Shown here: positions 29,821 to 59,244 of the stretch, in pieces
Layout of the letters: every line of letters begins with the position of its first letter
Numbering within the stretch: position 1 is the first letter of the stretch
NCBI GenBank assembly: GCA_026004395.1
Contig: BPJB01000001.1
Span: forward strand, 777,226-841,225
Direction of reading: 5' to 3'
DNA: 64,000 bases
Source: Patescibacteria group bacterium
GTDB taxonomy: Bacteria > Patescibacteriota > Microgenomatia > Levybacterales > UBA12049
Program-made: the position numbers and the translations under genes
The notes under the pieces: generated by a model
What the model was told of the DNA's origin: nothing
Databases searched by the model: none
Seen by the model: only the letters and a program-made list of their open reading frames with translations

Positions 29821-30312
29821 ATGAGCCTCACTAAAGCAATAATTTTTGTTTTATTAATAATGTCATTTATTATTGGTAGTATTTTTCTTGCAACTTTTCC
29901 TTTTTCATTTCTACACAGAGAATTAAGTATTCAAAATAACTCTAAAAAAATTAACTTTTATTGGAATTATAATAATAACAAAAAACTAATATCTTGTTTA
30001 AAAGAAATTAGCACACAAAAACAGCAGCATTTAAATAAAATAATGTTAATAATAGAAGATTCAAATTTGCAAACGCCATTATCTAAACCAATATATGAAG
30101 AAAAGAAACAACTTCTTAAAGTTTTTTTGTATCTTCCAAGCTCTCCTATGATTAAAAATAATAATCTTGCTTATACTAGAGTTGTCTATACAAATCTTAT
30201 TTTTTCTTTAATGGAATATTATAAAATGCAAGATCAACAGAATTGTTTATACGAAGAATATTTGGAAACAAGAGACAATAAAATACGATATTTTAATATC
30301 TCTTTAAAATGA
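29821..30312 (+). CDS. Hypothetical small membrane protein (very AT-rich)
   Basis: 163 aa ORF with N-terminal TM helix, Asn/Lys/Ile-rich. Overlaps the start of the large downstream gene by 4 nt. Confidence 0.25.
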   Translation: MSLTKAIIFVLLIMSFIIGSIFLATFPFSFLHRELSIQNNSKKINFYWNYNNNKKLISCLKEISTQKQQHLNKIMLIIEDSNLQTPLSKPIYEEKKQLLKVFLYLPSSPMIKNNNLAYTRVVYTNLIFSLMEYYKMQDQQNCLYEEYLETRDNKIRYFNISLK

Positions 30313-33161
30313 AAAATTTTCTTGATAGAAAAGAAACTTATTTAATAGTTATACTCAGCTTTATTTTACTTTTTCTTGTTTTAGTTAATAAAAATACTTT
30401 TGCTCAAGTTTGTTCTACATACTGTAATGAACAATATGGTATTCCTACAAATCATGTTTGTGCGTATGTAATTGATTGTAATGGTTATGAAATCTGTAGA
30501 GCTGCTCCTCGAAACTGTATGGGTTATGAATGTATTTATTGTCCGCCCCCACCATCTTCTGATGGTGGTTATGGGGATGGTTCGTATGATGCACCATATA
30601 ATAGTCCATATTATGCAGATTTTCGTGTTACAGGGGTTGGTGTGAGGAATAGGAATGGTAATACTCAGTCGTATTATGTAGCAGATTCACCTGGGTATAA
30701 TATCGATGGAGATCCGATATATGTTTCTGTGAGTATATTGAATGATGGTAATGGTTATCCTGATACTTCTTCAAGGCATGCTGTGTATAAGGATGTTGAT
30801 GCATATAATAGTGGTTCAGCCTCCATGTATATAGACTCATCTGATAACTGGCCTCCAGGCACTACAGCTACTTATCAGTCATGGTCTGGAGGTGTAGGCA
30901 GTGGTCAGTTTACGAGTCCATATTTTATGCAGCGTAATGCAGGTAGGTATAGGGTTTATGTTAAAGCCAACTATAATAATGCGGTGACGGAGTGGAATTA
31001 TTCAAATAATACGGGGTCTAGCGCTATTTATGAGGTCAGATCATCAATTTTTGGTTGGGTGTGTTGGAGTTTGGATGAGGATGCCCAGTGTGATGATGCT
31101 AGTGGGAGTACACCAGCTGATCCTTTGGTGAGTAATATACGGATTAGTTTGTATAGGGATGATAATAATAATTATGGTACTTTTTTGGGTACAGATACTA
31201 CGGTGCAAACGAGTAATTGGAACAGAAGTTATGCTTTTGATAATCTGAGTGCTGGAGATTATAAAGTGAGTTGGGATGATCCTGATTGGCTGCCTATTTC
31301 CTCACAGGAGAGGACAGCAAGTCTTGGTCCGCATACGAGGATCAGGTTTGCGGTGAAGCCAGCGTATAGGCTTTGGGGTTATGTGTTTGTGGATGAGGAT
31401 CGGGATGGTGTTCGGGATAGTAATGAGACTGTGGGATATTCTGGGGTGAGAGTTAGTTTGAGTGGTGAGGAGAGTAGGACGACGACGACAGATGCTAATG
31501 GGATGTATGAGTTTACTTCTCTTCCACGTGGTACGTATACGATCACGATTACAGAGCCTAATGGGTATAAGGCTTATCCTTCAGTGAGTAAGCAGCAGGT
31601 AATAGATCGTAATGAGACTCAGAGGAACTGGAGGAATGATTTTGGTATCAATCGGGTGTATAGTATAACAGGTAGGGTGTATGCTGATGCCAATCGGGAT
31701 GGGAGTTATTCAGCAGCTGATGTTGCGATAGCTAATCAGAGTGTTAGTTTGACAGGGAGTAGTTCAGCGAGTGTTGTTACTGACTCCAATGGGGTGTATA
31801 GTTTTGATAGACTTGAGCCTGGTGAGTATTTGGTGACTACTACACCACCTGCTGATTATACGGTGTTGACCTCACTTCCTTTGCGGGTGGTAATCACCTC
31901 TTCTAATGTAGCTAATCAAGATATACGTTTTTATGGTAAGTATACGATCTCAGGTGTGGTGTTTGTTGATGAGGATGATAGTAAGACGAAGAATAATCAG
32001 GAGCAGAATTATCCAGCTAATCCGCAGATAGCAGTTACCTCATCTCCAACTGGAGCTCCTCTTCCTCAGGTGGTGAATAATGCTGATGGTTCGTATCAGG
32101 TAACAGGACTTATCTCAGGGGAGTATACAGTGGCGTATAGTGCGCTGCCTCTTGGGTATTATGTGTTTCATCCCCGACCAGCGTTCTATGCTCCAAGAGT
32201 TGGTGTTGGCTGTAGTCCTGCGCCCCAGTCACCAGGAGGAAGCTGTGATGGAAATAACAATATAGTTGATCTGAACTTTGCGATCAAAGCTGGTGAGCCG
32301 TGGATGCAGATCTATGGTGCGGATGTGAGGTTTGATGAGGGGTTGAATGACCCTGTGCCTCCAACACCTAATGCTGCCTGTGGTGGTGCTTATGTGATCC
32401 TGCCGGGTAGTGGTGGTACTCCTGGTGTTGGATTTAGTGGAGATCTGCCACCTAAGCTTAATCTGGGTAGTATCTCCTCTTTGGGTTGGCTGGTGGGTGG
32501 TGTGCAGTATCCCTCGTTGTTTAAGCCGGTGAGAGCTAAGGTGATCAGAACAGCTTATGGTTATCTGATGTTTGCTGTTGGTCGGGGTAATGTGCGTACT
32601 GTTAATCTCTCCTCTGTATGTGATCCTGCCAACTGTACTCTGCCTGCTTCTTTGGCATCAGGTATCTATACTGCAACAGGAAATGTTAATCTTAATGCTT
32701 TTACCTTTCCTGCTAATCGGGACTATATCTTCCTCATAGATGGTACTCTGCGTATTAAAGGACAGATCCGAGTTCCCACTACCTCAACAGCTACATTCTC
32801 TGTCTCTGAGGATATCCTCATTGATGGCAGTGTGGGTAGTCCTCCTTCCTGTCCTCCACCAGCTGTTGGAGCTGCTGATCTGGAGGGTTTTTACAGTGCT
32901 GATCGCAACTTTATCGTTGAGAGTTCTCCTCAGACTGACTGTTCAGCAGGTATCATCGATAAACAGCTTAATGTCCAAGGAGCAATTGTTGTGGATGCTG
33001 GACAGAGAACACCAGGTGGAAGATTTACCAACAACAGAACCTTCTGCACCCAAAATATTGACTACCCCTCCTTCACCCTCAAAGCTAGACCTGATTTCAT
33101 CCTTAATGCCCCTGAGTTCATCAAACGCGAAAACTTCATCTGGCAAGAAGTAGCACCATAA
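30309..33161 (+). CDS. Large secreted/surface protein with Cys-rich N-terminus and tandem Cna-B/SdrD-B-like (prealbumin-fold) repeats
   Basis: 950 aa. Signal/TM at N-terminus, Cys-rich segment (CSTYCNEQYG...CAYVIDCNGYEICRAAPRNCMGYECIYC). At least four repeats of the G.V..D.N.DG..D..E.....V.V.L......TTTD.NG.Y.F..L..G.Y type (e.g. GYVFVDEDRDGVRDSNETVGYSGVRVSL...TDANGMYEFTSLPRGTYTIT). Confidence 0.55.
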   Translation: MKNFLDRKETYLIVILSFILLFLVLVNKNTFAQVCSTYCNEQYGIPTNHVCAYVIDCNGYEICRAAPRNCMGYECIYCPPPPSSDGGYGDGSYDAPYNSPYYADFRVTGVGVRNRNGNTQSYYVADSPGYNIDGDPIYVSVSILNDGNGYPDTSSRHAVYKDVDAYNSGSASMYIDSSDNWPPGTTATYQSWSGGVGSGQFTSPYFMQRNAGRYRVYVKANYNNAVTEWNYSNNTGSSAIYEVRSSIFGWVCWSLDEDAQCDDASGSTPADPLVSNIRISLYRDDNNNYGTFLGTDTTVQTSNWNRSYAFDNLSAGDYKVSWDDPDWLPISSQERTASLGPHTRIRFAVKPAYRLWGYVFVDEDRDGVRDSNETVGYSGVRVSLSGEESRTTTTDANGMYEFTSLPRGTYTITITEPNGYKAYPSVSKQQVIDRNETQRNWRNDFGINRVYSITGRVYADANRDGSYSAADVAIANQSVSLTGSSSASVVTDSNGVYSFDRLEPGEYLVTTTPPADYTVLTSLPLRVVITSSNVANQDIRFYGKYTISGVVFVDEDDSKTKNNQEQNYPANPQIAVTSSPTGAPLPQVVNNADGSYQVTGLISGEYTVAYSALPLGYYVFHPRPAFYAPRVGVGCSPAPQSPGGSCDGNNNIVDLNFAIKAGEPWMQIYGADVRFDEGLNDPVPPTPNAACGGAYVILPGSGGTPGVGFSGDLPPKLNLGSISSLGWLVGGVQYPSLFKPVRAKVIRTAYGYLMFAVGRGNVRTVNLSSVCDPANCTLPASLASGIYTATGNVNLNAFTFPANRDYIFLIDGTLRIKGQIRVPTTSTATFSVSEDILIDGSVGSPPSCPPPAVGAADLEGFYSADRNFIVESSPQTDCSAGIIDKQLNVQGAIVVDAGQRTPGGRFTNNRTFCTQNIDYPSFTLKARPDFILNAPEFIKRENFIWQEVAP

Positions 33162-41065: not shown

Positions 41066-43042
41066 ATGTGGCAAAAAATTTTCTCTGACAAAAGATCTCA
41101 GTTCTTCAGCCTTATCATCCTAATTCTCATCGGAACAGCGATACCTCTAACTATTCTTCTAAGTCAACAGGAACAAGATATCCGCCAACAAGCAGCCGAG
41201 ACATCACAAGTATGCTCAACAGATCAAGCAACAGACACAATGCTTATCATTGATCGCTCAGGTAGCATGGGACGAGCAACATCTACTACAGATCCCACTC
41301 CGCGCATTGATAGTGCCAAAACTGCTGCCAATGCATTTCTGGACATCCTAGCACAGCGAACTGCAGAACCAAAACATGCAGTAAGTCTAACGACTATCTC
41401 ATCTGAATCTATGGTAAAACTCGATCCATCCCTAACACAAGATTTGCAGAGAGTGAAAGCTGTAATTAATAGTCTTACTCCGGGAGGAGGAACCTGTATT
41501 GAATGTGCTATCAAAACTGCCGCTGATGATTTTGCCAATAAGGAAAGAAGTGGTATCAAAAATATTGCTGTTATGCTTACGGACGGAGGAGCAACACAGT
41601 ATATAGGAGGACCAGCTGATACTTCACCAACAAATCGAGCTGAAGCTGAAAAACGCGCATTTGAAAGAGCGATGCAAGTACATAAACAATACAATGTAAC
41701 ATTCTATACAATTGGCTTTGGTGATGTAGTTAAAGATGAGCTTCTTCTTAAGATAGCCACTTCCTCTGGTGGTGAGTATGTTTTTGCACCCAGTAAAGAA
41801 AAACTGAAACAAATTTATGAAAATCTGGCTAAGATTATTGGGAAAGGATCAGTTACAGGCAATGTCTTCAACGATCTCAACGGCAATGGAATTAAAGAAA
41901 CAAATGAACCATTCCTTCCAGGATGGAAAGTTGATCTTCTAGCAGGAAATACTGTTGTTGGAAATTCTACTACATCTGATGAAGGATATTTCTCTATCAC
42001 AGGTATCTGTGATGGTACATACCAACTCAAACTCAATCTCCAGCCAGGATGGAGACAAACAACACCTATCAACAATGGAGTACATCCCATTACAATATCC
42101 AAAGGAAGTACTATAACAGACAAACTTTTTGGTGTACAACTTATGCCAAAAGCGACTACACTCGCATGCTTACCTTCTGATCTTACCCTTTCAGAGACTC
42201 CCGGAACAATAACTGCAACACTTCGAGATAGTGATGGTAATCCAATTCCAGGACAAACACTTACATGGTCATCCCCCAATCCCTCTCTTATTATCTCACC
42301 TACTTCTCAAACAACTGGAGCAAATGGCACTATCACTGCACAAGTCTCTGTTGGCAATCCTGAAGATAAAAGTGAAGAATTTACTTCACAACTCACGGTA
42401 ACGAGTGCTGGATCTTCACAATATAATCAAGCAAGCTGTATTGTGAATGTCTCTTTCAAACCCAACGTTACTACCCTTTCGTTTAATATCTTCCTCCATG
42501 GAATTGGCAAAAGCGGAGACAATGCCAATCCTAATAGATTTGATCTAAGTAATGCTAATCCTCTCAATCCTGAGCGACCTTTCCTCATTGAGGTATATAG
42601 TATTGAGGGTGAAAATCCACTTATTGCAAGAGTTCAAGGAACATTAGTATATGATTCTAAAGACGGCATATTCAGAGGAACAATACAACTTCCCAATACT
42701 GTTCAATCTGGGAAATACAATATCTTCGTTAAATCACCTCAATATATCTTCAGACGTGTACCTCAGACATTAACAATAGTCAAAGGACAACAGTATATAG
42801 TGCCCACTATTACACTCGTATCTGGAGATGTTGATGACAATGATGAACTTGATATTCTTGACTACAATATACTTGCTGGATGCTACTCAGATTTTGCACC
42901 AGCACCCTCCTGTACGGAAGAATTGAAACAAAAAGCAGATCTTAGAGATGATGGACAAGTTAATCAAGAAGATGTTAATCTATTCTTAAGAGAGCTCTCC
43001 GTTCAACGTGGAGATCAAAGACCAAACCAACAATACCGATAA
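41066..43042 (+). CDS. Membrane-anchored vWA-domain protein with SdrD-B-like and Ig-like domains and C-terminal dockerin module
   Basis: 658 aa. N-terminal TM, vWA MIDAS DTMLIIDRSGSMG, Cna-B-like segment (GNVFNDLNGNGIKETNEP..GWKVDLL...TTSDEGYFSITGICDGTYQL). C-terminal dockerin-type duplicated Ca-binding repeats (GDVDDNDELDILDYNIL ... DLRDDGQVNQEDVNLFL). Confidence 0.6.
   Translation: MWQKIFSDKRSQFFSLIILILIGTAIPLTILLSQQEQDIRQQAAETSQVCSTDQATDTMLIIDRSGSMGRATSTTDPTPRIDSAKTAANAFLDILAQRTAEPKHAVSLTTISSESMVKLDPSLTQDLQRVKAVINSLTPGGGTCIECAIKTAADDFANKERSGIKNIAVMLTDGGATQYIGGPADTSPTNRAEAEKRAFERAMQVHKQYNVTFYTIGFGDVVKDELLLKIATSSGGEYVFAPSKEKLKQIYENLAKIIGKGSVTGNVFNDLNGNGIKETNEPFLPGWKVDLLAGNTVVGNSTTSDEGYFSITGICDGTYQLKLNLQPGWRQTTPINNGVHPITISKGSTITDKLFGVQLMPKATTLACLPSDLTLSETPGTITATLRDSDGNPIPGQTLTWSSPNPSLIISPTSQTTGANGTITAQVSVGNPEDKSEEFTSQLTVTSAGSSQYNQASCIVNVSFKPNVTTLSFNIFLHGIGKSGDNANPNRFDLSNANPLNPERPFLIEVYSIEGENPLIARVQGTLVYDSKDGIFRGTIQLPNTVQSGKYNIFVKSPQYIFRRVPQTLTIVKGQQYIVPTITLVSGDVDDNDELDILDYNILAGCYSDFAPAPSCTEELKQKADLRDDGQVNQEDVNLFLRELSVQRGDQRPNQQYR
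42846..42900 (+). repeat. 55-nt exact direct repeat (copy 1) inside dockerin-coding region
   Basis: aacttgatattcttgactacaatatacttgctggatgctactcagattttgcacc is identical to 44983-45037. Confidence 0.8.
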
Positions 43043-43043
43043 T

Positions 43044-45191
43044 ATGTTACATTCATTGTCATCAAATAAGAAAATTCTTTTTCTTGTCCTGATAGGAATT
43101 TTACTCATCAGCCTACCTCTAACCATCTATCTCTTACAAAAGCAACAAGAAACACGAAGTAAAGCAGAATTAGCAACAACTCTCTTCTTTGAACCCCAGT
43201 CAACGAGTGCATCTCCTATTCAAAAAAATGTAAACGATATTTTTTCAGTGAATATGATGGTCAATCCTGGACAGAACCAGATTTCACTGGTTAAATTTGA
43301 AATTACCTACGATGCAACCAAAATTACGGCTCTAGGAACAAAAGGTTTTACCACTAATACAAATGCATTTCCAGTAACCGTAGAAGGTCCATTTATAACT
43401 GAAGTAAACAACGTGGGTAAGATACAGGGCACTGTTTCAATTGGTTCAGATTATAACAAGGCAATTACCTCCCAAACCATAGTCGGATCTATAGAGTTTA
43501 AAGCAAAAGCCAGCACATCCACCCAAACTACACAAATTAATTTCAGTAGTACCAATACTCAAGTGCTTTCTCTTGGTACAGGTGATCAAGCCAGTGAAAA
43601 TGTACTTTCATCCACATCACCAGCATATATTACTATCTTACCTGCAATAACTTCTTGTTCGTTTAATCCTTCTACTGCGGATATTATGATGATTGTGGAT
43701 GTTTCAGGAAGTACTCTTGATAACCGCACTTCACAAAAAACAGCCATGAAGAATTTTGTGGATAGTGTAATCGCAAATAACAGTGTCAGTGGTCAGTACC
43801 GTATTGGTCTTATCTCCTACGCATCAACCGCTCGCCTCAATTTCTCTTTGCAAAATGGAACAGACTACAATGGACTAAAAAATGCGATTGACAACATGCC
43901 ATTTATTGATAATGCATCAGCAGGAGAAGCAGAAGCAGTTAGACTTTCAACAGACGAATTTACCAAATACGGAAGAAGCGGAGTAAGAAAAGCAGTAATT
44001 TTGCTTACAGATACAATTGATTCTTATACCAACAATGCAGCTAATGATGCATACAATATTCACAAGACCGCATTTTATGTTTTGGCTTATGATATTACTA
44101 ATAGCACCATCCGCCGCATGCTACAGGATCTAGCAGGTAGAACCGGTGGGACATATCATGAATACACTGGTACATCAGGACCATCTGAAAATCAACTTCT
44201 TCAAGATCTTGCATCAGATGTCACGTGTCCCACAGTTACTCCAACTACCCCTTCACCAACACCTACTCCAACACCTGCCTCTCCAACTCTCACATTTACA
44301 GCAGCTCAGACATCTCTCAGTTATAACGGCTCAACCACTCTGAGTTGGAACTCTACAAATGCATCCTCATGTACCGCCTCCGGAGGGTGGAGCGGCACAA
44401 AACCACTCAGCGGAACTGAAAGCACTGGTCCTCTCACATCATCCAAAATCTACGTACTAACCTGTACTGGTCCGGGAGGAAGCGTAACAAAATCTGTTAC
44501 TGTAACTGTTGCACTGCCTACACCTACTCGAACACCGACTCCAACACCAACACCCATACCTACAAATACTCCAGTACCAACGAATACACCTATTCCGCAG
44601 GCAACCAAATTTAAATTTATCGTTTACCTCCATGGTCTGGGAAATAGTGGAGACAATCGCAACCCCACAGCTCATTCACTCAGCAATAAAAATCCTATTA
44701 GACAACAGAGATCACTGGATATTGAAGTCCTCACTACCGGAGCAACACGTCAGATTGTTCTTAAAAAAAGCTTCACAACGGGTCTGACATATAACGCAGC
44801 GCAAGGGTATTTTGAGGGTCTTGTAGATATGGGAACAACACTCCAATCAGGAATCTATAATATCAATATCCATACCTATCAATATCTTTGGAATTCTTTT
44901 GCAGGTGTTCAGATTACCGCAGGACAGACAAATACATTCCCATCAATTTCTTTAGTTACGGGTGATATCAATAATGATGACCAACTTGATATTCTTGACT
45001 ACAATATACTTGCTGGATGCTACTCAGATTTTGCACCTGCTGTGTCCTGCCCTGCTACAGTTGTCCCATCAACACCTTTCCTCCTCAAAGATATGGCTGA
45101 TCTCACTGACGATGGCAAGGTAAACCAGTTTGATTACAATCTTTTCCTTCGTGAATACTCAGTACAAAACAGCAACCGTATTACACAATAA
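43044..45191 (+). CDS. Membrane-anchored cohesin-like + vWA-domain protein with PT-linkers and C-terminal dockerin module
   Basis: ORF track starts at 43008, but the likely start is MLHSLSS at 43044, just after the upstream stop. TM helix, cohesin-like N-terminal domain (FSVNMMVNPGQNQISLVKFEITYDATKITALG...GSIEFKAK), vWA MIDAS DIMMIVDVSGST. Pro/Thr linkers (TPTTPSPTPTPTPASPT), Ig-like domain. C-terminal ~190 aa colinear with the upstream protein tail, including dockerin repeats (GDINNDDQLDILDYNIL ... DLTDDGKVNQFDYNLFL). Confidence 0.55.
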   Translation: MLHSLSSNKKILFLVLIGILLISLPLTIYLLQKQQETRSKAELATTLFFEPQSTSASPIQKNVNDIFSVNMMVNPGQNQISLVKFEITYDATKITALGTKGFTTNTNAFPVTVEGPFITEVNNVGKIQGTVSIGSDYNKAITSQTIVGSIEFKAKASTSTQTTQINFSSTNTQVLSLGTGDQASENVLSSTSPAYITILPAITSCSFNPSTADIMMIVDVSGSTLDNRTSQKTAMKNFVDSVIANNSVSGQYRIGLISYASTARLNFSLQNGTDYNGLKNAIDNMPFIDNASAGEAEAVRLSTDEFTKYGRSGVRKAVILLTDTIDSYTNNAANDAYNIHKTAFYVLAYDITNSTIRRMLQDLAGRTGGTYHEYTGTSGPSENQLLQDLASDVTCPTVTPTTPSPTPTPTPASPTLTFTAAQTSLSYNGSTTLSWNSTNASSCTASGGWSGTKPLSGTESTGPLTSSKIYVLTCTGPGGSVTKSVTVTVALPTPTRTPTPTPTPIPTNTPVPTNTPIPQATKFKFIVYLHGLGNSGDNRNPTAHSLSNKNPIRQQRSLDIEVLTTGATRQIVLKKSFTTGLTYNAAQGYFEGLVDMGTTLQSGIYNINIHTYQYLWNSFAGVQITAGQTNTFPSISLVTGDINNDDQLDILDYNILAGCYSDFAPAVSCPATVVPSTPFLLKDMADLTDDGKVNQFDYNLFLREYSVQNSNRITQ
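44983..45037 (+). repeat. 55-nt exact direct repeat (copy 2) inside dockerin-coding region
   Basis: Identical to 42846-42900. Encodes LDILDYNILAGCYSDFAP in both proteins. Confidence 0.8.
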
Positions 45192-45977: not shown

Positions 45978-46745
45978 GTGTACACTTACCCTATGAATGA
46001 CCTTGAAACAGCACGGATTTTATTCAACGAAGCTAAAAATCTTGGACTTAATCCACAATGGATCACTGAATATGGGCTTTTCTCTATTAATCTTGATAAC
46101 ACAATTCGATTTGTATTTTATGGAATCTCCTATCTCAATTCACAAATAAGTAGTTATCTTTGCCGTAACAAACATGCAACGCGAAAAGTTCTTGATCTCT
46201 TTAGACTACCTAATATTCCCTATGCCTTGCCTGCAACAGATGAAGAAGCACTCTTTTTCCTAAAGAAATATAAACGAATTGTCGTTAAACCAACTGTTGG
46301 TTCAAATTCTGAAAATGTCCATCTTATAACCGAAAAGAGTCAACTGAAAAATATAGACCGCGCTACCTCTATTTTTGAAAAATATATTGAAGGACGAGAA
46401 TTTCGTTATTTGGTATTAAAAAACCAAGTAATTGCTGTTCATGAACGCATCTTCCCTGGTTTACTGAATGACCCAAAAGTTGTTAAAAGAATATCCTATC
46501 CACAAAACAAATGGGAGAAAAAGCTAATTGCAATTTCTCTAAAAGCAACTCAGGCTCTTGGTACAAAATTTGCAGCAGTTGATTTTAAAATTGATAAAAA
46601 CGAAAATCCTTATATTTTAGAAGTAAATGCAGCAGCGGGAATAAAATGGTTTCACTATCCTAGTGAAGGTCCTAGTGTCAATGTTGCTAATCTGCTGCTT
46701 ACGGCAACTATTGAAGAATTAAGAGATAAAAACACTATGCAGTAA
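45978..46745 (+). CDS. ATP-grasp fold ligase (RimK/glutathione-synthetase-like), short
   Basis: 255 aa. VVKPTVGSNSENVHL, EKYIEGREFRYLVL, and catalytic-loop-like ILEVNAAAG typical of ATP-grasp enzymes. Confidence 0.5.
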   Translation: MYTYPMNDLETARILFNEAKNLGLNPQWITEYGLFSINLDNTIRFVFYGISYLNSQISSYLCRNKHATRKVLDLFRLPNIPYALPATDEEALFFLKKYKRIVVKPTVGSNSENVHLITEKSQLKNIDRATSIFEKYIEGREFRYLVLKNQVIAVHERIFPGLLNDPKVVKRISYPQNKWEKKLIAISLKATQALGTKFAAVDFKIDKNENPYILEVNAAAGIKWFHYPSEGPSVNVANLLLTATIEELRDKNTMQ

Positions 46746-47811: not shown

Positions 47812-49077
47812 ATGGAAAAAGAGTTTTTTATAAAAGGTAAATTTGAACCTCAGCTAGCTCCATTCTCAGATAGTCATATATCAGAAAACGTTAAGAATAC
47901 TGAGAACATAAAAGAAATTCCTCAAGAAATTACACCAGAGGTAATTATAAATGCAAATCAATCCACAGAAGTAAAAGAAAATCTGCGTGTTTACGACGAC
48001 AATCGCAGAGATTCCGCAAAAGGTCTGGTATTGGAGTGGGATTGTATAGATGCACGCATTATCCGACCTCTAGCTTTAGAATCTTTTTACTATAATACCA
48101 TAGCTAATGGCGGAAATCCTGAAAAAATACAACAAGCAGTGAATAGTCCAGTAACAAAATTTGCACTTGTTGTAGCCCATGAACCAGTTTGCGGTGGTAG
48201 GATGGCAAAACACCAACAAATAGAAAAAGGAATATTCTCAGATAGTGAAGGATTATCTCGTTATATATCAGATGAAATCGACCATCCATCAGTAATTCAA
48301 GCTGCTGTAAAGGCAAAAGAACTGGCACAGCTTACTTCAAAACTAGTAGTTGCTATGGTACACAACCATGAAGATGGAACAAGAAAAGTCCTTGCAGTAT
48401 TTAACCGAACTGATGGCGGATATACTGCATTAATTGATGATGATGTCTTTGAAAACCCAACACCCCAAAATCCTCTTGATGATCATCTCCTTCCCTATCT
48501 GCCGACAAGTGAACTTCCCGAAGAGATTCAATTGTATTTAGATAAATACGAACGTGCAAGAAAAGCTCTACTTGATGCCAATCCTCATGCTTATATGAAA
48601 ATGAAAAATCATAATCCACGGATAGGCAAAATTGCGACAGACTTAAGAGCAGCTGAATTATGGATTCCAAATCTTGTACAACCAGGAGAGATTGTCCGAT
48701 TTACAGTACCTCGCCGTAAAATACCTCGAGTTAACGGTGAGAAAAAAACTATTCTTAATCCTAAAGATATAGAACTTATCTGGGAACAGGCCGAGTATGT
48801 AATGACTCATTCTGTTGAAAGCCGCGAAGCCAATTCTGGTCCTTTCAAAGATACAGACACTTTTCTTATTTCCACACCGGACTTTGCTCTGTCTCAGGAA
48901 ATTGCCTTAAGGCTTGCACAGCAACCATTTGCTCAACCATGGCTTATGGACGAACGCAATAGAGTTCTTGTTATTCAAAATAATGCAGGAGTAGTGCGAA
49001 AAGCATCTCAGATGCGCTATACTTTCAAAGATGGAGATGTCGTCGCTTTTGAAGAAGTCTCAAGAGCAATAGCATAA
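47812..49077 (+). CDS. Hypothetical protein with N-terminal CxDxR / H...CGG motifs
   Basis: 421 aa. WDCIDARI and VVAHEPVCGG loosely resemble beta-CA zinc-ligand motifs. Remainder unassignable. Confidence 0.3.
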   Translation: MEKEFFIKGKFEPQLAPFSDSHISENVKNTENIKEIPQEITPEVIINANQSTEVKENLRVYDDNRRDSAKGLVLEWDCIDARIIRPLALESFYYNTIANGGNPEKIQQAVNSPVTKFALVVAHEPVCGGRMAKHQQIEKGIFSDSEGLSRYISDEIDHPSVIQAAVKAKELAQLTSKLVVAMVHNHEDGTRKVLAVFNRTDGGYTALIDDDVFENPTPQNPLDDHLLPYLPTSELPEEIQLYLDKYERARKALLDANPHAYMKMKNHNPRIGKIATDLRAAELWIPNLVQPGEIVRFTVPRRKIPRVNGEKKTILNPKDIELIWEQAEYVMTHSVESREANSGPFKDTDTFLISTPDFALSQEIALRLAQQPFAQPWLMDERNRVLVIQNNAGVVRKASQMRYTFKDGDVVAFEEVSRAIA

Positions 49078-49115: not shown

Positions 49116-50519
49116 ATGCGTGTATTTCTTGTCAATTTCGTACTTTCCTATCTTCGTTTTTTCGCACGTAAAGCACTTCAAAAGCATCAACCAATTATTA
49201 TTGGTATAGCAGGATCAGTTGGCAAATCTTCAACTCGTAATGCAATTGAAGCAATACTCAAAGATTATTCTGCAGTAAAATCAGTTGGTAATTCAGAGAC
49301 AGGCATTCCTTTGGGAATTTTAGGAATGAAACCCCAAAATTATACCAAGCTTGAGTGGCTCAAAATGCTTCTTCGAGCCCCTTTGCGTCTTAATTATCTT
49401 AAAGGAACAAAATATCTTATTGCAGAAATGGGAATTGATGATCCCTATCCTCCCAAAAATATGGAATACCTTTTAACAATTCTCAAACCAGATATTGCAA
49501 TCTCATTAAACGTATCTGCAACCCATACAATGCAATTTGAAAAAGCACTTTCTCCAAAAGATAAACAACTCAATGACCAAGAAAAATTAAAAAAAGTTAT
49601 CCAAAAGATTGCAGAAGAAGATACAAAAATCCTGACAAAATCAAGCTGTAATATTGGTATTTATAATGCCGACGATGAAGCATTAGTTGATGCAATCCAG
49701 AAAAAACGTAAAAAATTACTTTCTACGGAACTTTTTACTTTCGGAAAAAGAAAAACGAACGACATCTTTTATGGTGAATATAATATTTCATTAACTGGTA
49801 CTAAACTAAATCTTTATGTCAAAGATATACAGGGCAAAAAGCTTCAACACCTCAAATTATATTTCACTAATATGATTCTTCCTCAGGAATATCAAGAAGT
49901 TTTCGCTGCTGCAGTTCTTTCGACAATCCAAACAGGATTAACTCTCTCACAAATCAAAAACTCTCTTGAGAAAAACTTCACACTTCCTAAAGGCAGATCG
50001 AGCATCTTCATGGGTATTCACAATAGCGTTATTATTGATTCAACATATAACGCATCAAGACGGTCTGTAGAGGCTTTTCTCGATCTCGTTGATACTCTAA
50101 AAAAAGCGACAGATCGTCCAGTTGTTTTTCTCTTTGGAGATATGAGAGAGTTAGGTAATGAGGCTTATATTGAACATAGAGCTATTGCTGAAAAAATATT
50201 GGGTATTGTTGACAATTTATACCTAGTTGGTCCATTGACAAAGGAATATGTACTGCCTAACATAAAGCGTGCAAAAAACGAAGTACACGAAGTACTCTGG
50301 TTTGATACATCAATCAAAGCAGGAGAATATATGAAAAAACATCTACCTTATAATGCTATCGTGCTTGCCAAAGGATCACAAAATACAATCTTTCTTGAGG
50401 AGGCAATCAAAATGATTTTAGCAGATAAAAAGGATGCTCAGAATTTATGCAGACAAGATGAATACTGGAGCAATGTCAAAAAAAATTTTTTTGATAGCCA
50501 TAAGAATATCTTATCTTAA
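49116..50519 (+). CDS. Mur-ligase family protein (MurF-like)
   Basis: 467 aa. P-loop GIAGSVGKSSTRN and NSETGIPLGIL resembling the MurF ITGSNGKTTT / NNEIGVPLT motifs. Confidence 0.55.
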   Translation: MRVFLVNFVLSYLRFFARKALQKHQPIIIGIAGSVGKSSTRNAIEAILKDYSAVKSVGNSETGIPLGILGMKPQNYTKLEWLKMLLRAPLRLNYLKGTKYLIAEMGIDDPYPPKNMEYLLTILKPDIAISLNVSATHTMQFEKALSPKDKQLNDQEKLKKVIQKIAEEDTKILTKSSCNIGIYNADDEALVDAIQKKRKKLLSTELFTFGKRKTNDIFYGEYNISLTGTKLNLYVKDIQGKKLQHLKLYFTNMILPQEYQEVFAAAVLSTIQTGLTLSQIKNSLEKNFTLPKGRSSIFMGIHNSVIIDSTYNASRRSVEAFLDLVDTLKKATDRPVVFLFGDMRELGNEAYIEHRAIAEKILGIVDNLYLVGPLTKEYVLPNIKRAKNEVHEVLWFDTSIKAGEYMKKHLPYNAIVLAKGSQNTIFLEEAIKMILADKKDAQNLCRQDEYWSNVKKNFFDSHKNILS

Positions 50520-50737: not shown

Positions 50738-50813
50738 TGGTGGGTACTGATGGAATCGAACCATCCACCTCTGTCTTATCAGGACAGCGTTCTAGCCGAT
50801 GAACTAAGTACCC
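50738..50813 (-). tRNA. tRNA-Ile (anticodon GAT), CCA encoded
   Basis: Minus-strand 76-nt cloverleaf GGGTACTTAGTTCATCGGCTAGAACGCTGTCCTGATAAGACAGAGGTGGATGGTTCGATTCCATCAGTACCCACCA. 7-bp acceptor, D stem GTTC/GAAC, anticodon stem CTGTC/GACAG with loop CTGATAA, T stem GATGG/CCATC. Confidence 0.85.
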
Positions 50814-51778: not shown

Positions 51779-51898
51779 ACTCAGAATTGAGGTTCAACCT
51801 CATTCTTTTTCTTTAAGAAGAGATTAAAAATACTTACAATCTACTCACTAAAAAAACATTACATCCGCGGAGGGATACACGCTAAATCTGTTTACTTG

Positions 51899-51971
51899 AG
51901 GCGCGAAGGGGACTTGCACCCCTGAATGGCTGTTCTGCAGACAGCTGTGTTAGCTACTTCACCACCGCGCC
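51899..51971 (-). tRNA. tRNA-Cys (anticodon GCA), CCA not encoded
   Basis: Minus-strand 73-nt GGCGCGGTGGTGAAGTAGCTAACACAGCTGTCTGCAGAACAGCCATTCAGGGGTGCAAGTCCCCTTCGCGCCT. Acceptor GGCGCGG/TCGCGCC (one G-U), anticodon stem GCTGT/ACAGC with loop CTGCAGA, T arm AGGGG-TGCAAGT-CCCCT. D stem is short (3 bp). Confidence 0.7.
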
Positions 51972-52192: not shown

Positions 52193-52957
52193 ATGGCAAT
52201 TCTTGCTGAAACGCTGAAGAATAAATTTCACGGGTTTCTTTATGGCAGTCCACATCCTGCTTTACCTTCAGATTTTCCATCAGAGAGATTAAGATATATT
52301 AGAGATTATGGAAAAGTTGGAGTCACAGAACTTGTCTCAATCATCTGTAAAGATAGTTCATATAATTTTTTTGCTCCATATTTTGCTCTTAAATTGTTAG
52401 ATTGCCAACCTGAGCATCAATATGAACTACTATCACATATAGTACAAACTTTTAGCATAGGAGGAACATATGAGGATACAAGTCAGGTTATCACATCGTT
52501 CTTCCAAACTCGACCTTCTCTACCAACACAAGCTGTTGCACCTAATAAACTACGTCAAGTAATAGAAAGAGGTCCAGCATATGTGGAGGAATGTATAGTA
52601 CGTGTGGCAAAAGAAGTAGAAGAAAAAGGCAAGTCTCCGGTAATTCTTGGCTATGCTGGCTTGTTAGCACTCAGAGAATTTATTATCCGATGGAAAACAT
52701 CATCTATATATATCTTATTTCCTGATAATCTAACAGATAGTGAAAAAGTAAAAGGTTACGAAATAATAAGAGAACAAACCAAAAGTTATGTAGGTGATCT
52801 TGCACCACGGAGTTTCACTTCCACAAACAATTTTGGATTGATTGATAATACTATTTATACAGGGGAAACTATAAAAAAAGCAAAAAATTTTATTAATCAG
52901 TACAATCCAAACGCCCTAATCTCAGATCATCCTTTTTATATTACTCGCCTCGCCTAG
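52193..52957 (+). CDS. Hypothetical protein (possible phosphoribosyltransferase-like C-terminus)
   Basis: 254 aa ORF. GLIDNTIYTGETIKKA weakly resembles the type I PRTase PRPP-binding motif. Confidence 0.3.
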   Translation: MAILAETLKNKFHGFLYGSPHPALPSDFPSERLRYIRDYGKVGVTELVSIICKDSSYNFFAPYFALKLLDCQPEHQYELLSHIVQTFSIGGTYEDTSQVITSFFQTRPSLPTQAVAPNKLRQVIERGPAYVEECIVRVAKEVEEKGKSPVILGYAGLLALREFIIRWKTSSIYILFPDNLTDSEKVKGYEIIREQTKSYVGDLAPRSFTSTNNFGLIDNTIYTGETIKKAKNFINQYNPNALISDHPFYITRLA

Positions 52958-53320: not shown

Positions 53321-54785
<1,465 letters not shown>

Positions 54786-55596
54786 GAATTGGTTTTGAAC
54801 AAAAAATAACAGGATATAATACCTGTTAAAGGGAAGTTCAAAACCTATATATTCCCTACCACTTTTTGATTGTCAAAGATCTATGATTTATTTTTTGTTA
54901 TACCACTAATAACCAGTGGCAAAGTTAAGAGGTAGTAAATTGCTGTTTTGAAGAGACAAAAAAACTCGCCGAGGCGAGTTATTCTTTCTCCTCTGGCAAC
55001 AACAATCACATGGTAGTAGTTATTATACCCGTATTTTAAGGTTTGTCAACCCCGTTGGATTTATTCACTGTAAAGTGAATCCCCATTTTCGTTGCGTAAT
55101 ACATATAAAGATGCCTCCAAAGGGAAGAGTTGACGTATAGGAAAAAACTTATAACAAAACGTGAACAGATTGTTTCTGCTTTTGTTAATAACTATATTGG
55201 AAAGGATATAGATGTGAGATTATTCGATGGAAACTAATGGACGTGTCTTTCATCGAACTCGTTTAAGACTATAGTTGATGACAAAATACCGAATAGATAC
55301 GGGTGGTCTATTGCTCTATTACTACGAAAACTGAGAAATCACAAAATGCGGAATTTGAGAAGTAAATTTACAATAAATTTATTTTCATAGATATCTTTAC
55401 ATTTTTTTAAGAAATATATAAAATATTGCATTCTTACAACATCTGAATACTTTATGAAAAATGTCTAAAACACTTTCTATTTCTATTAAATATCTTTAGG
55501 AATAAGAAAATAAAAATATAATAAAATAATTCCTTATCTTTTTAAAGCAGTAAACAGTGTTTTAAACTTAATTTCTAAAGACAATTCACAAATTCT

Positions 55597-56871
55597 ATGA
55601 AAAAGAACAAACATATCCTTTTAGTTCGAAGCGGATATCCTAGTAAAGAATTTATATTAAAAAAGTTGAAAGAATTTAAGTATTATGTAATAGTGCTTGA
55701 TACCAAAAAAAGTTGTCCAGATTATTTAGTAGATGAATGGATTCTTACAAACTCATTAGATAATACGCAGGCTATAGAAGCAATAAAGCAGTATTTAAGA
55801 AAGGCAAACAAAAAAATAGATGGCGTAATTACGTTCTGGGAAGAAGCTGTAATAGCAACAGCGGCAATTGCACAGGAGTTATCACTTCCGGGAATTGATC
55901 CTAGAAAAGCAGAAGAAATAAAAAATAAATATACTTTTCGTTCTTTCTGTAAAATGAATAATTTTAACACTCCTTTTTTTTCCTTTTTAACAGAAAAGGA
56001 TGTTATCGATGAAAAAATAAAAAATAAATTACCCTTTCCTCTTGTTGTTAAACCTATTTATGGAGCAGCAAGCGCTTTTGTAATGAAAGTTGATTCATGG
56101 GAAGAGTTAAGAAATGCATTTTTCATTATTAAAAAATATATTAAATCATTTTGGCTGGCAAACGAATGGAAAAATTTTGATCTCTTTATTGAACAATATA
56201 TTGATGGACAAGAAGTAGATATAGATCTACTGATCCAAGAAGGAGAGATTAAATTCTGGTCTATCACGGATAATTTTCAAACTCATGAACCATTTTTTGT
56301 TGAAACAGGTCAAGCAATTCCTACAAATCTTTCTCACAACAAACAACAACAACTTATAGAAATGGCATCTAATATTCTTCGTACTGCTAAAATTAGAAAT
56401 GGATGTATTCATTTTGAGGCAAAATACTCCTCTTGCGGTCCAATACCAATTGAAATAAATCTAAGAATGGGCGGCGATGAAGTGTATAGTTTTATCAAAA
56501 ACGCCTGGGGAGTAGATCTTATTGAGAATGCTGTTAAAATATCACTTGGAGAAAAAATAGAGGTTAAAAAACCAAATAAACCTTTAATGTATCTTGAAGG
56601 AAGATATTTTCTACCTCACTGTGAAGGAAAAATCTCAAAAATTTTTATAGATCCTACTCTTATAAAAGACCCTTCTCTTTTTGAACTTAAAATTGTTAAA
56701 AAAATGGGAGATAATATTTTCCTTCCTCCTAAAGATTATGACTACTTTGGCTGGATTACTACTAAAGGAAGAACAGCAGAAAAAGCTCATGAAGCTTTAC
56801 TTAGATTATATCCTAAAGTGCAATTTTCAGTTAAAGAGTATGAACAAAATCAATTTCAAATGTATTTCTAA
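55597..56871 (+). CDS. ATP-grasp domain ligase (L-amino-acid-ligase / carboxylate-amine ligase-like)
   Basis: 424 aa. PLVVKPIYGAASAFVMKV, EQYIDGQEVDIDLL, IHFEAKY, PIEINLRMGGDEV motifs characteristic of ATP-grasp enzymes. Confidence 0.65.
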   Translation: MKKNKHILLVRSGYPSKEFILKKLKEFKYYVIVLDTKKSCPDYLVDEWILTNSLDNTQAIEAIKQYLRKANKKIDGVITFWEEAVIATAAIAQELSLPGIDPRKAEEIKNKYTFRSFCKMNNFNTPFFSFLTEKDVIDEKIKNKLPFPLVVKPIYGAASAFVMKVDSWEELRNAFFIIKKYIKSFWLANEWKNFDLFIEQYIDGQEVDIDLLIQEGEIKFWSITDNFQTHEPFFVETGQAIPTNLSHNKQQQLIEMASNILRTAKIRNGCIHFEAKYSSCGPIPIEINLRMGGDEVYSFIKNAWGVDLIENAVKISLGEKIEVKKPNKPLMYLEGRYFLPHCEGKISKIFIDPTLIKDPSLFELKIVKKMGDNIFLPPKDYDYFGWITTKGRTAEKAHEALLRLYPKVQFSVKEYEQNQFQMYF

Positions 56872-57757
56872 CATTAAAGAGGCAGAAATTGCCTGGAAAC
56901 AACTTTCTCCTTTAAAAAGTATTTATGATGACTGGGATTTTCGATATTGTTATTACAAATTCTTTCAATATCCGCTTTTTTTTTATGCAGGTTTTGATAA
57001 GAATGAATTAATTGGACTGTTACCCTTAATGTGGAATGAAGAAAAAGGTTACTTGGATTTCTTTGCAGGATTCAGTTATATGGAAGATAACGCAATATTT
57101 ATTAAAAGAGGTTATGAAAAATACTATAATAACTTTTTAGAATGTATTGATCGTCCTGCACTTTTAGAATATATGAGGCCGGATATGAAATTACTTAATA
57201 ATTCAGTTATTCAAGATTTTAATTATTCAGTTAACTTAAAATCTTTAAGATCATACGCAGATTTTATTTATCTGTACCTTGGAAAAAATACCGCTAAGAA
57301 ACTATTTTCCCAATTCAAAAAAATACAAAAACTTGGAGTTAAAATAATTTATGACAGATTCGATGATCTTTCTCTATTGGTGTACTGGAATAAAGTTAAA
57401 TTTGGAGCAAACTCAAGTTTTTATGAAAGACCACACTGGGAAACATTTATTAAAACTATTACAAAAAAATATCCTTCTAAAATTATTTCTGTTGAAATTA
57501 ATAAAAAAGTTGAAGGCGTAGGACTAGTTATTTTTTATAATAATATTTGTTATGGGATAAACTCAGGATATAATCCCACAATCAACAATCTCGGTAAGTA
57601 TATAACTATGCTAAAAATAGATGCAGGAATAAAAGCTAGAGCAACTACTTATGACGCTGGATCTGGTTCTTTTGGATGGAAAGAAGATTTCCATTTACTT
57701 AAAAAACCGCAGTATCAACTTGACTTGAGATCAAAATATATTACATGGCATCTCTAA
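56840..57757 (+). CDS. FemAB/BioF2-like (GNAT-fold, PF13480-like) protein, paralog 1
   Basis: ORF track starts at 56681, but the start aligned to the paralog is MNKINFK at 56840, overlapping the ATP-grasp stop by 32 nt. Pattern AW..LSP...IYDDWDFRY.YYK.F.YPLFFY......LIGLLPL...LDFFAG....DN. Confidence 0.4.
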   Translation: MNKINFKCISNIKEAEIAWKQLSPLKSIYDDWDFRYCYYKFFQYPLFFYAGFDKNELIGLLPLMWNEEKGYLDFFAGFSYMEDNAIFIKRGYEKYYNNFLECIDRPALLEYMRPDMKLLNNSVIQDFNYSVNLKSLRSYADFIYLYLGKNTAKKLFSQFKKIQKLGVKIIYDRFDDLSLLVYWNKVKFGANSSFYERPHWETFIKTITKKYPSKIISVEINKKVEGVGLVIFYNNICYGINSGYNPTINNLGKYITMLKIDAGIKARATTYDAGSGSFGWKEDFHLLKKPQYQLDLRSKYITWHL

Positions 57758-58647
57758 AACTTAAAACAATAACTAATCTCAATGATGCAAAACATATTTG
57801 GGAAATTCTATCTCCTAAAAAGAGAATCTATGATGATTGGAATTTTCGCTTTTCCTATTATAAATATTTCAAATATCCGCTTTTTTTCTATACGCTGTTT
57901 CAAAATGATATGCCTGTTGGACTTTTACCACTACAGTACAATACAAATTTAAAAATCTTAGAATTCTTTGGCGGAAATTATATGGAAGACAATAATATAT
58001 TTACTAATCCTGACCAAAAATCTATGTTTTATAAAAAATATCTCTTGCGAAAATTTTTACAGATGTCAAAATACAAAGTAATTCTTGACTTTATGGAGGA
58101 AGATATAGAAGGATTTCATTTTCAAATTTCAGATTATAAATATGAATTGCCATTAGAAAATTTGTCAAGTTTAAATGATTATTTAACAAAATATTGGAAA
58201 CGTAAATCACGTAACAATCTAAAAGCTCAAATTAAAAAATTATATAATCAAAAATTGATTATAAGATATGATAATTTTCTAGACTTAGAATACATGTTTG
58301 AATTAAATATAAAAAAATTTGGTAAAGAATCAACTCTTCTTTTTCCTCATAGAATTGATTTTCTAAAAGAAATTGTTAGGCAATTTAATTCCCATTTAAT
58401 TACCATTTCAATAAATTCGAGAAAAGAAGCGGTTGGTTTATCAGTACTTTATAACGGAATTTATATTGGATTAAATTCCGGAACTAATCCTTCTATTAAT
58501 GGACTTGGTAAATTTCTCTCTCTGCAAAAAATCGAACAAGCTATTTCTTTAGGCGCAATTTTATATGATGCAAGAGCGGGAGATTTGGGATGGAAAGAAG
58601 CTTTTCATTTTGTCAAAAGACCTCAATATAAACTAATAATAAACTAA
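57745..58647 (+). CDS. FemAB/BioF2-like (GNAT-fold, PF13480-like) protein, paralog 2
   Basis: 300 aa, colinear with paralog 1 (IWEILSPKKRIYDDWNFRFSYYKYFKYPLFFY....VGLLPL..LEFFGGNYMEDNN ... LGWKEAFHFVKRPQYKL). Confidence 0.4.
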   Translation: MASLKLKTITNLNDAKHIWEILSPKKRIYDDWNFRFSYYKYFKYPLFFYTLFQNDMPVGLLPLQYNTNLKILEFFGGNYMEDNNIFTNPDQKSMFYKKYLLRKFLQMSKYKVILDFMEEDIEGFHFQISDYKYELPLENLSSLNDYLTKYWKRKSRNNLKAQIKKLYNQKLIIRYDNFLDLEYMFELNIKKFGKESTLLFPHRIDFLKEIVRQFNSHLITISINSRKEAVGLSVLYNGIYIGLNSGTNPSINGLGKFLSLQKIEQAISLGAILYDARAGDLGWKEAFHFVKRPQYKLIIN

Positions 58648-58686: not shown

Positions 58687-59244
58687 TTATATTGTCTGAA
58701 AAAATCTTATTTTTTGAAAATCCTCCCTCAAAGAAGACAAAAATTTCTTAGGAAATCTTAATGCTGCTGCTGGATGGTATGTTAAAAAATATTTAATTCC
58801 ATCTTTATCTTCGATAATTTTACCATGCTCTTTAACCACAGATACTCGCTTCTGAAGAACACCCTCAGCCGCAACTCTTCCCAGAAGGACCACAATCTTA
58901 GGATGAATAATATTAAGTTGCTTTAGTAAATGCTCTCTACCATGTGCAATATCCTCCGATGTAGGAGTACCCCTATTTGGTAGATATTTAACAGGACTTG
59001 TAATATAAACCTCCTTTTCTTGCAAACCTATTTCACGAATGAGGCTACGCAAAAGTTGTCCTGATCTACCCACAAAGGGTCTTCCTGTTTCTGACTCTAC
59101 ACGACCCGGTGCTTCACCAATAAACGCAATATCCGCATCTGGATTGCCCTCTCCTGGAACCGGCTTACCACTTTTTCCGATCTTACAGAGATCACATTGT
59201 TCGATTTCTTTGGCAATAGCATCAAGATACTGTTGCTTGTTCAT
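58687..59244 (-). CDS. Uracil-DNA glycosylase, family 4 (Fe-S type)
   Basis: 185 aa. CDLCKI....KPVPGEGNPDADIAFIGEAPG and HPAAALR motifs of UDG family 4. Confidence 0.8.
   Translation of the reverse strand: MNKQQYLDAIAKEIEQCDLCKIGKSGKPVPGEGNPDADIAFIGEAPGRVESETGRPFVGRSGQLLRSLIREIGLQEKEVYITSPVKYLPNRGTPTSEDIAHGREHLLKQLNIIHPKIVVLLGRVAAEGVLQKRVSVVKEHGKIIEDKDGIKYFLTYHPAAALRFPKKFLSSLREDFQKIRFFQTI

Follow-up and report, generated by a model that had tools for sequence, protein, structure and literature searches.

The locus and its surroundings

The window analysed here, a 64-kb stretch of contig BPJB01000001.1 from a Patescibacteria group bacterium, contains a cassette of three genes at 55597-58647 on the plus strand. 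The first gene, g1 (55597-56871, 424 amino acids (aa)), encodes an ATP-grasp ligase of the L-amino-acid-ligase (LAL) type. It is followed by g2 (56840-57757, 305 aa) and g3 (57745-58647, 300 aa), both coding for FemX-like tandem-GNAT proteins, which belong to two orthologous groups, A and B, respectively. Consecutive genes overlap, g1 and g2 by 32 nt and g2 and g3 by 13 nt, which bears out the overlapping plus-strand operon described in an earlier, model-made reading of the sequence (hereafter the original prediction). An identical 32-nt overlap was found in the relatives at loci L001 and L009. The mechanically called open reading frame (ORF) of g2 begins with a TTG at 56681 (56681-57757); alignment with its paralog and its orthologs placed the true start at the ATG at 56840. 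The encoded proteins are identical to KatS3mg089_0829 and KatS3mg089_0831, and KatS3mg089_0830 was assigned by position. The metagenome-assembled genome mg089 originates from Katase hot-spring sediment (PMC9671151).

The cassette forms an AT-rich island, as had been noted before: its GC content is 28.5% versus 35.7% for the window, the fifth lowest value among 305 windows of 3 kb (lowest 2%), and in five syntenic relatives the cassette lies 4-8 points under its flanks. The position attributed to it, immediately upstream of the 16S leader, had to be corrected. The 16S rRNA gene (53323-54787) is on the minus strand, so that the operon is divergent from it across an intergenic region of 809 nt (54788-55596, 29% GC) between the 5' end of the 16S rRNA gene and g1. 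Of the non-coding flanks of about 800 nt that had been claimed, only this upstream one exists; on the other side, a mere 39 nt separate g3 from the convergent gene for uracil-DNA glycosylase (UDG; 58687-59244, minus strand). The stretch 55049-55022 on the minus strand, which precedes the 5' end of the 16S rRNA gene by about 235 nt, matches the sigma-70 consensus at 12 of 12 positions (TTGACA-16 nt-TATAAT) and, judging from this perfect match, is probably the 16S rRNA promoter. A weaker promoter-like site is found at 55396-55424 (plus strand), some 170 nt upstream of g1. Promoter consensus matches numbered 26, against 24 expected from shuffling, and the 12/12 match alone stands out. No conserved small ORF was detected in the intergenic region upstream of g1 when the window, L001 and L004 were compared.

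The ligase g1

In Pfam, g1 matched ATP-grasp_4 (PF13535) at 5e-23. The LAL C-terminal domain 2 (LAL_C2, PF18603) scored 27.5 bits, just under the gathering cutoff of 29.4; it is present in close homologs of g1 according to precomputed matches, and for the fused protein of L004 the score is 40.9 bits. Against NCBIfam, g1 gave sub-threshold matches only, the best one to an LAL-like N-terminal module. A single-sequence search of the PDB returned the LAL BL00235 (3VOT) as best match at 1e-25, with RizA and BacD next. With a family profile of 55 sequences, the match to 3VOT reached 8e-57 and covered the full length (residues 8-413), followed by BacD at 2e-26 and RizA at 2e-24, while the top carboxylase was at 1e-13.

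The AlphaFold (AF2) model of g1, with a predicted local distance difference test (pLDDT) value of 93.8, gave Foldseek template modelling (TM) scores of 0.82-0.86 to 3VOT and of 0.81-0.82 to YwfE/BacD, compared with 0.62-0.70 to PurK, PurT and biotin carboxylase. The motif set quoted in the original prediction is complete: LVVKP (K152), EQYIDGQE (E199) and IEINLRMGG (E286, N288, R290) are all present, and across 55 homologs these ATP- and Mg-binding residues vary little or not at all. As a candidate Ddl enzyme, g1 scored 38 bits versus the Ddl-model cutoff of 243, and the operon in the window has no fused Ddl-like domain. By profile and predicted structure, g1 is thus a member of the ATP-grasp superfamily and falls into the LAL group, as anticipated, rather than clustering with PurK, PurT or biotin carboxylase, the housekeeping enzymes that had been named as the outcome contradicting a ligase.

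The paralogs g2 and g3

g2 and g3 share 41% identity (E 7e-74) and are true paralogs of about 300 aa, in agreement with the original prediction. The paralog motif cited there, DDW.FR..YYK.F.YPLFFY...GLLPL...EFFGG, is exact for g3; in g2, the counterpart of the last block reads DFFAG, and the DW.FR motif and the family-invariant lysine (FGWKEDF) are retained. The family profiles suggested at that time met with partial success. PF13535 was matched by g1, and Acetyltransf_6 (PF13480, cutoff 22 bits) was matched by g3 with 28.3 bits; g2 stayed below that cutoff with 18.7 bits, and FemAB proper (PF02388) was matched by neither paralog. No NCBIfam model, TIGR03019 included, matched g2 or g3. A HMMER search of 1.84 billion cluster representatives for the paralog family yielded 749 relatives at E <=0.001 and 273 at E <=1e-30, nearly all of about 300 aa. 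Among the 143 family representatives whose alignment we used for conservation analysis, PF13480 is found in 140, FemAB_like (PF04339) also in 28 and PF02388 in none. TIGR03019 (XrtA/PEP-CTERM-associated FemAB) matches 12 of the 143 weakly, at best with E 1.8e-8. NCBI names the relatives 'GNAT family N-acetyltransferase'.

The AlphaFold model of g3, built with 30 homologs, has a pLDDT of 94.6 and a predicted TM score of 0.90 and displays a two-domain, tandem GNAT fold; the missing GNAT or FemAB fold that would have spoken against the assignment was therefore not what the model returned. Foldseek against the PDB gave as best matches Sbb17/Sba18 (E 5e-12, TM 0.66-0.70) and, at the same E value, FemX of Weissella (TM 0.64-0.66). 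S. aureus FemA/FemX followed at 0.60-0.61 and MprF and the aminoacyl-phosphatidylglycerol synthases (aaPGS) at 0.55-0.62. The acetyl-CoA-dependent tandem GNATs, namely VipF, a clavulanate-pathway protein and a glucosamine N-acetyltransferase, reached about 0.43-0.55. All top-scoring neighbours of g3 (0.55-0.70) are aminoacyl-tRNA-dependent and the acetyl-CoA GNATs lie lower (0.40-0.55 overall), which favours a donor of the tRNA type. Profile searches of the PDB with three alignments (A1, A2 and A3, the latter of the C-terminal domain) placed Sbb17/FemX at E 0.07-0.6 (FemX 0.28), in alignments that end at residue 274, short of K284. Matches to SidK and to 'Dandelion' had slightly better E values and were taken as spurious, since they cover a helical, lysine-rich stretch.

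K284 (g3 numbering) is the sole invariant residue of the family (143/143); W283 is kept in 140 of 143, and R35, W19 and W32 are almost invariant. The surrounding motif is D/N-x-G-W-K, with D or N at position -4 from the lysine. In FemX, Lys305 is the sole reactive active-site residue, and in DhpH-C the corresponding Lys329 is essential, preceded by Phe328 and with Asn325 nearby (PMC12945691). The pair W283-K284 recalls, by analogy, F304-K305 of FemX and F328-K329 of DhpH-C, with which it shares its form. A positively charged helix on GNAT domain 2 of FemX is the proposed contact for the tRNA acceptor stem (PMC12945691). In g3, helix 153-167, which opens GNAT domain 2, is likewise basic, with conserved Lys/Arg at seven positions, and the isoelectric points of the two paralogs are 9.2 and 9.5. 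The acetyl-CoA pyrophosphate motif Q/R-x-x-G-x-G/A, expected where strand 4 meets helix 3, is not kept. The consensus in the loop before helix 254-268 is N-L-G, and the position of the first glycine, placed by the secondary structure of the model and not by superposition, is occupied by N in 77, by D in 29 and by G in 18 of the 143 sequences. Taken together, the fold, the invariant aromatic-lysine pair, the basic helix and the unconserved acetyl-CoA motif lead us to infer that aminoacyl-tRNA is the favoured donor.

Conservation in related genomes

Related loci were located by a genome scan with alignment A1, the broad alignment A2 being too divergent. Among the 18 species-representative loci with at least 30% identity to g3, a g1-like ATP-grasp gene lies upstream on the same strand in 14, directly adjacent in 13 of them and about 1.4 kb away in one (L015). 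The original prediction had proposed to check related genomes for conserved genomic context, and such conservation was found for the ligase-transferase pairing. In all 34 loci examined, the ATP-grasp gene was the only widely shared neighbour (20/34). UDG came next with 10, owing to synteny. That the pairing is kept across many Patescibacteria lineages supports a functional cassette.

The sister genomes share with the window the succession of 16S rRNA gene, cassette, UDG, SpoU methylase, DUF5667 protein and topoisomerase I, and the divergent placement of the 16S rRNA gene beside the cassette is kept in L001, L012 and L013. An all-against-all comparison of the transferases resolved three orthologous groups, A, B and C, in fixed order. 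The cassettes of L001, L009, L013 and L014 consist of the ATP-grasp gene followed by A, B and C, that of L012 of the ATP-grasp gene and two paralogs; type C is missing from the window. g2 is 54% identical to the A protein of L001 and 49-51% to those encoded by the N-terminally incomplete A genes of L002/L003, and g3 is 49-52% identical to the B proteins of L001, L002 and L007.

GNAT genes without an ATP-grasp gene in the locus occur in L007, L017, L022 and L025. Such loci would suit transferases whose acceptor amine exists beforehand and does not come from the ligase. In L007, the ATP-grasp gene and the front of A are gone while B and C are intact, so that this locus appears to be a partly eroded cassette. 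At 7352-7999 of this locus, type A is cut to a 215-aa chimera of an N-terminal fragment of serine hydroxymethyltransferase and the C-terminal part of A.

We also considered whether the cassette might be a mobile or defence element. Searches of plasmids and viral contigs yielded no relatives, and none of the PADLOC defence-system models matched g1, g2 or g3; this reading was rejected on these grounds.

Variant loci

In other lineages, named Saccharibacteria, Paceibacterota, Peregrinibacteria and Roizmanbacteria among others, the g1-type ligase is fused to an ATP-grasp domain of the Ddl family. The fused LAL-Ddl ligase is usually followed by one GNAT gene (two in L021), whereas unfused single ligases accompany two to three transferase paralogs. 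The fused Ddl-like domain matched the NCBIfam D-Ala-D-Ala ligase at 1e-45 with 155 bits, below the cutoff of 243, and all of its 34 top PDB sequence matches are Ddl or Van ligases. A plain count of ligation modules gave three or four in every complete locus, which is suggestive.

In L002 and L003, the transferase genes A-B-C run on into a MurL-like gene with overlapping ends (L002 2915-4219, and the same in L003). As gene A is cut by the end of the contig, an ATP-grasp gene may still lie upstream. The MurL-like protein of L002 matched the NCBIfam MurL model at 7.6e-23, far under the equivalog cutoff. MurL acts as an epimerase on the terminal L-Glu of a peptidoglycan precursor, and Patescibacteria are not among the taxa named in the MurL review (PMC8788868).

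In some genomes of the Paceibacterota type, the Fem-like genes are embedded in a larger single-strand operon (L019 1745-13120, also L015 and L029). Its order is 7TM_transglut, a 944-aa ATPgrasp_ST/RimB-like/MATCAP-like fusion, two ATP-grasp genes, one or two GNAT genes and two MATCAP-like peptidases, which has the look of a system in which ligases and peptidases together make or tag peptides. The ATP-grasp proteins of these clusters are only 22-25% identical to g1. A tblastn search of the 64-kb window revealed no MATCAP-like, 7TM_transglut, ATPgrasp_ST or MurL-like gene.

Further variation was seen in single loci. L005 adjoins polysaccharide genes (glycosyltransferase, sugar-phosphate transferase), and in L011 related ATP-grasp genes lie within a cluster of several ATP-grasp ligases and an Orn/DAP decarboxylase. 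More distant GNAT relatives have a PurD/GARS-like ATP-grasp gene alongside instead. Proteins P0292/P0323 (L041 7001-8506, 501 aa) are a Fem-like tandem GNAT fused to Acetyltransf_1 (3e-18), on a 371-kb contig with no ATP-grasp gene within the 15.5-kb locus. Since a canonical acetyltransferase is fused on, the Fem-like part of this protein is not the one that acetylates.

Aminoacyl-tRNA synthetase genes were encountered in three places, which may be coincidence: an isoleucyl-tRNA synthetase gene just upstream of the g1-like ATP-grasp gene in L010 (3743-9668), another one near the lone Fem-like gene of L025 (2077-8891) and a glutamyl-tRNA synthetase gene near the GNAT pair of L017.

Proposed pathway and its acceptor

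The gene structure, the paralogy, the folds, the family placement and the gene pairing are directly established. On this basis we propose, at a probability of roughly 0.55, that the operon provides a ribosome-independent route to peptide bonds in which ATP-dependent and tRNA-dependent steps are combined. As its family membership suggests, g1 would activate a carboxylate as acyl-phosphate and then link it with an amine, so that two amino acids are joined or a first residue is placed on an acceptor amine. In the following two steps, to which the fold, the invariant lysine and the basic helix point, g2 and g3 would each move an aminoacyl group from a charged tRNA to a free amino group, with K284 of g3 acting as Lys305 in FemX of Weissella. 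Because sister genomes have the third paralog C and other lineages the fused Ddl-like domain, the pathway seems to need about three to four ligation modules, and the product is probably, from sequence and models, a peptide of three to four bonds. Donor, acceptor, order of steps and product are what we infer from these data. The original prediction, which proposed in hedged terms that the cassette makes a short peptide branch, a small peptide product or some aminoacylated molecule, is supported and still offers the best reading.

As acceptor we favour peptidoglycan or another envelope precursor, on which a side branch or interpeptide bridge would be built in the manner of FemXAB, MurMN or the D-aspartate ligase Aslfm, with a chance of roughly one in three. 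Such an acceptor would agree with the Fem-like fold and the series of paralogs, with the Ddl-like fusion, with the operonic MurL-like gene of one lineage and with the GNAT-only loci. Several points weigh against this picture and against the proposed pathway in general. The characterised LALs, which are the nearest relatives of g1, join free amino acids and do not act on large acceptors. Among solved structures, g3 comes closest to a natural-product enzyme, and PF02388 is unmatched throughout the paralog family (0/143). Peptidoglycan genes neighbour the cassette at chance frequency for genomes of about 1 Mb (a MurF-like gene 5 kb off in the window, PBP1 in L004, FtsW-MurG in L017); in a genome of 1 Mb, chance alone would place one near roughly every third locus, and they therefore carry little weight. 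The MurL-like link, the only operonic one, is limited to a single lineage. The setting of L019, L015 and L029, with MATCAP-like, RimK-like and 7TM_transglut genes, points to peptide or protein modification, and L005 sits beside polysaccharide genes.

We also entertain, tentatively and with clear doubts, a more specific idea: the cassette would make one defined short peptide, which might be a novel type of peptidoglycan branch or cross-bridge, from about three to four interchangeable modules, the mix shifting between ATP-grasp domains (LAL with or without Ddl-like) and one to three Fem-like paralogs, so that the same bond is formed by either chemistry and the two would have replaced each other in the course of evolution.

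A free short peptide, be it a metabolite, signal, antibiotic or compatible solute, is nearly as likely as an envelope-precursor acceptor and thus a serious, if still tentative, possibility. An LAL dipeptide would then be extended at its N-terminus from aminoacyl-tRNA, as by Sbb17/Orf11, PacB and DhpH. The structural proximity of g3 to Sbb17/Sba18, natural-product enzymes of the same size, would be explained in this way, as would that of g1 to the dipeptide-forming LALs BL00235, RizA and BacD. The multi-ATP-grasp cluster of L011 with its Orn/DAP decarboxylase fits as well, and so does the relative in which a Fem-like module is fused to a canonical acetyltransferase, as if to cap a free amine. 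Against this reading, no exporter, resistance or tailoring genes lie beside the cassette in the window or in the syntenic relatives. It occupies a fixed chromosomal position by the 16S rRNA gene across the sister genomes, and plasmid or viral-contig relatives were not found. The GNAT-only loci, lacking a ligase, also sit uneasily with a ligase-made dipeptide as starting point. Tagging of proteins or peptides, that is, the attachment of amino acids at the end of a protein or on one of its side chains as by RimK, tubulin-tyrosine ligase or L/F-transferase, appears improbable to us. The carboxypeptidase MATCAP takes off a tag residue at the C-terminus, and tagging systems made of ligases and peptidases were reportedly predicted by Iyer et al. 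(2009); in L019, L015 and L029, the GNAT genes do share their operon with the ATPgrasp_ST/RimK-like-RimB-like-MATCAP-like fusion, two more MATCAP-like peptidases and 7TM_transglut. Yet these partner genes occur neither in the 64-kb window nor in the syntenic relatives, the ATP-grasp proteins of those clusters are as distant from g1 as stated above, and no conserved candidate target protein is found nearby.

The remaining alternatives concern the chemistry. If the paralogs were acyl-CoA-dependent N-acyltransferases acting on the ATP-grasp product, there would be a precedent in the GNAT that works with an ATP-grasp enzyme in making N-acetylglutaminylglutamine, and both the Pfam family name, 'Acetyltransferase (GNAT) domain', and the NCBI naming of relatives as N-acetyltransferases would be apt. 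VipF and the clavulanate-pathway tandem GNAT are indeed among the structural matches, but with TM scores below those of the tRNA-dependent enzymes. The N-L-G consensus in place of the acetyl-CoA motif, together with an invariant aromatic-lysine pair and a basic helix that suit Fem-type enzymes, renders this option unlikely. Two to three conserved orthologous groups in series are also hard to square with simple acetylation, and one relative has a separate canonical acetyltransferase domain fused on. Microviridin clusters pair ATP-grasp ligases with a GNAT, and 809 nt lacking an annotated gene ahead of g1 would leave room for the small precursor peptide of a ribosomally made graspetide, on which an ATP-grasp macrocyclase and a GNAT would act. 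We disfavour this explanation and consider it very improbable, since no small ORF is conserved upstream (window, L001, L004), g1 matches LALs over its full length, the region of the probable LAL C-terminal domain included, and the GNATs are Fem-like tandem proteins of 300 aa, not single-domain acetyltransferases.

Much of bacterial diversity belongs to the Patescibacteria, or Candidate Phyla Radiation, and almost no biosynthetic operon of theirs has a known product. In organisms with such tiny genomes and a dependence on hosts, each retained biosynthetic operon is informative. The present one appears to unite the two known routes by which cell-wall precursors receive amino acids independently of the ribosome, namely ligation by ATP-grasp enzymes and tRNA-dependent Fem transfer. 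Should it build a branch of the cell wall, this would reveal the wall chemistry of an uncultured group as well as a new mixed pathway. If the modules are swappable, it would be the first pathway with both cross-bridge chemistries in a single operon; and a free peptide would make this symbiont, with its genome of 1 Mb, a rare case of metabolism of the secondary type. Being small, soluble and confidently predicted in structure, the three proteins are open to direct in vitro study.

Other features of the window

tRNA-Ile(GAT) is encoded at 50738-50813 and tRNA-Cys at 51898-51971. A 254-aa ORF with no family match (52193-52957, plus strand) lies, like these two tRNA genes, downstream of the 16S 3' end. 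No 23S or 5S genes were found in the 64-kb window; the 16S rRNA gene stands alone, and the rRNA genes thus appear unlinked. A 255-aa RimK/cyanophycin-synthetase/Ddl-like ATP-grasp protein is encoded at 45978-46745. The MurF-like Mur ligase mentioned above (49116-50519) matched TIGR01143 at 3e-46, below the cutoff, and next to it is a 421-aa ORF with no family match (47812-49077). This ORF was tried as a candidate MurL and rejected: BLASTP found no similarity to the MurL-like protein of L002, and its neighbour is MurF-like, not MurD2. Farther away, a 950-aa predicted secreted repeat protein at 30309-33161 is encoded by unusually GC-rich DNA (43-48%) with strong positive GC skew, and two large VWA-like proteins are encoded at 41066-45191.

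Comparison with known systems

g2 and g3 resemble FemX, FemA and FemB, MurM/MurN and BppA1/A2 (PF02388) in being basic, cytoplasmic proteins of tandem-GNAT fold. Their invariant lysine after an aromatic residue near the C-terminus and the basic helix that opens domain 2 recall features of the Fem enzymes, and the groups A, B and C are tandem paralogs kept as separate orthologous groups, as are femA/femB and murM/murN. Unlike the Fem enzymes, they belong to PF13480 (some also to PF04339) and not to PF02388, are only about 10-14% identical to them in structural alignments, have no coiled-coil arm and are operonic with an ATP-grasp ligase. Sbb17, Sba18 and Orf11 (PDB 9WQW-9WQY) are peptide synthases that depend on aminoacyl-tRNA and belong to streptothricin-type antibiotic pathways; these natural-product enzymes come from actinomycetes and have an amino sugar as their substrate (PMC12945691). 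They are the best structural match of g3 and of like size (about 290-310 aa), and Sbb17/Sba18 show the weak profile similarity given above in GNAT domain 2, which is not significant (E 0.07-0.6); the cassette, in contrast, lacks an antibiotic cluster context. The TIGR03019 proteins and the CelD/BioF2-like PF13480 proteins are in the same Pfam family as g2, g3 and 140 of the 143 relatives, but the former belong to proteobacterial exopolysaccharide loci and their model is not matched by g2 or g3.

g1 has the three-domain ATP-grasp architecture and the ATP/Mg motifs of BL00235 (3VOT), RizA (4WD3) and YwfE/BacD (3VMM), and probably their LAL C-terminal domain. It differs from these LALs in its low identity (about 23% to BL00235 in a structural alignment), in being operonic with Fem-like transferases and in the Ddl-like fusion of many of its relatives. 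Aslfm, a D-aspartate ligase on which Bellais et al. reportedly published in 2006, is said to be an ATP-grasp enzyme that adds a cross-bridge residue to a peptidoglycan precursor. Likened to g1 by description, it offers a functional analogy only, in that an ATP-grasp enzyme adds a branch residue to a stem-peptide amine. To our knowledge, the ATP-grasp and Fem routes are alternatives in known organisms, not partners in one operon.

In 2009, Iyer, Abhiman, Burroughs and Aravind reportedly predicted operons in which peptides are made or used as tags by ATP-grasp enzymes together with peptide ligases of the acetyltransferase fold. Two of the Pfam families encountered here in L019 and L004, ATPgrasp_ST and 7TM_transglut, presumably stem from that work. 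Our literature search, whose reach did not extend to Iyer et al. (2009), found nothing specific on an LAL paired with PF13480 proteins in Patescibacteria. The components of the cassette are new members of known enzyme kinds; what appears to be new is that they are combined in one operon and that ATP-grasp domains seem to have been exchanged for Fem-like paralogs.

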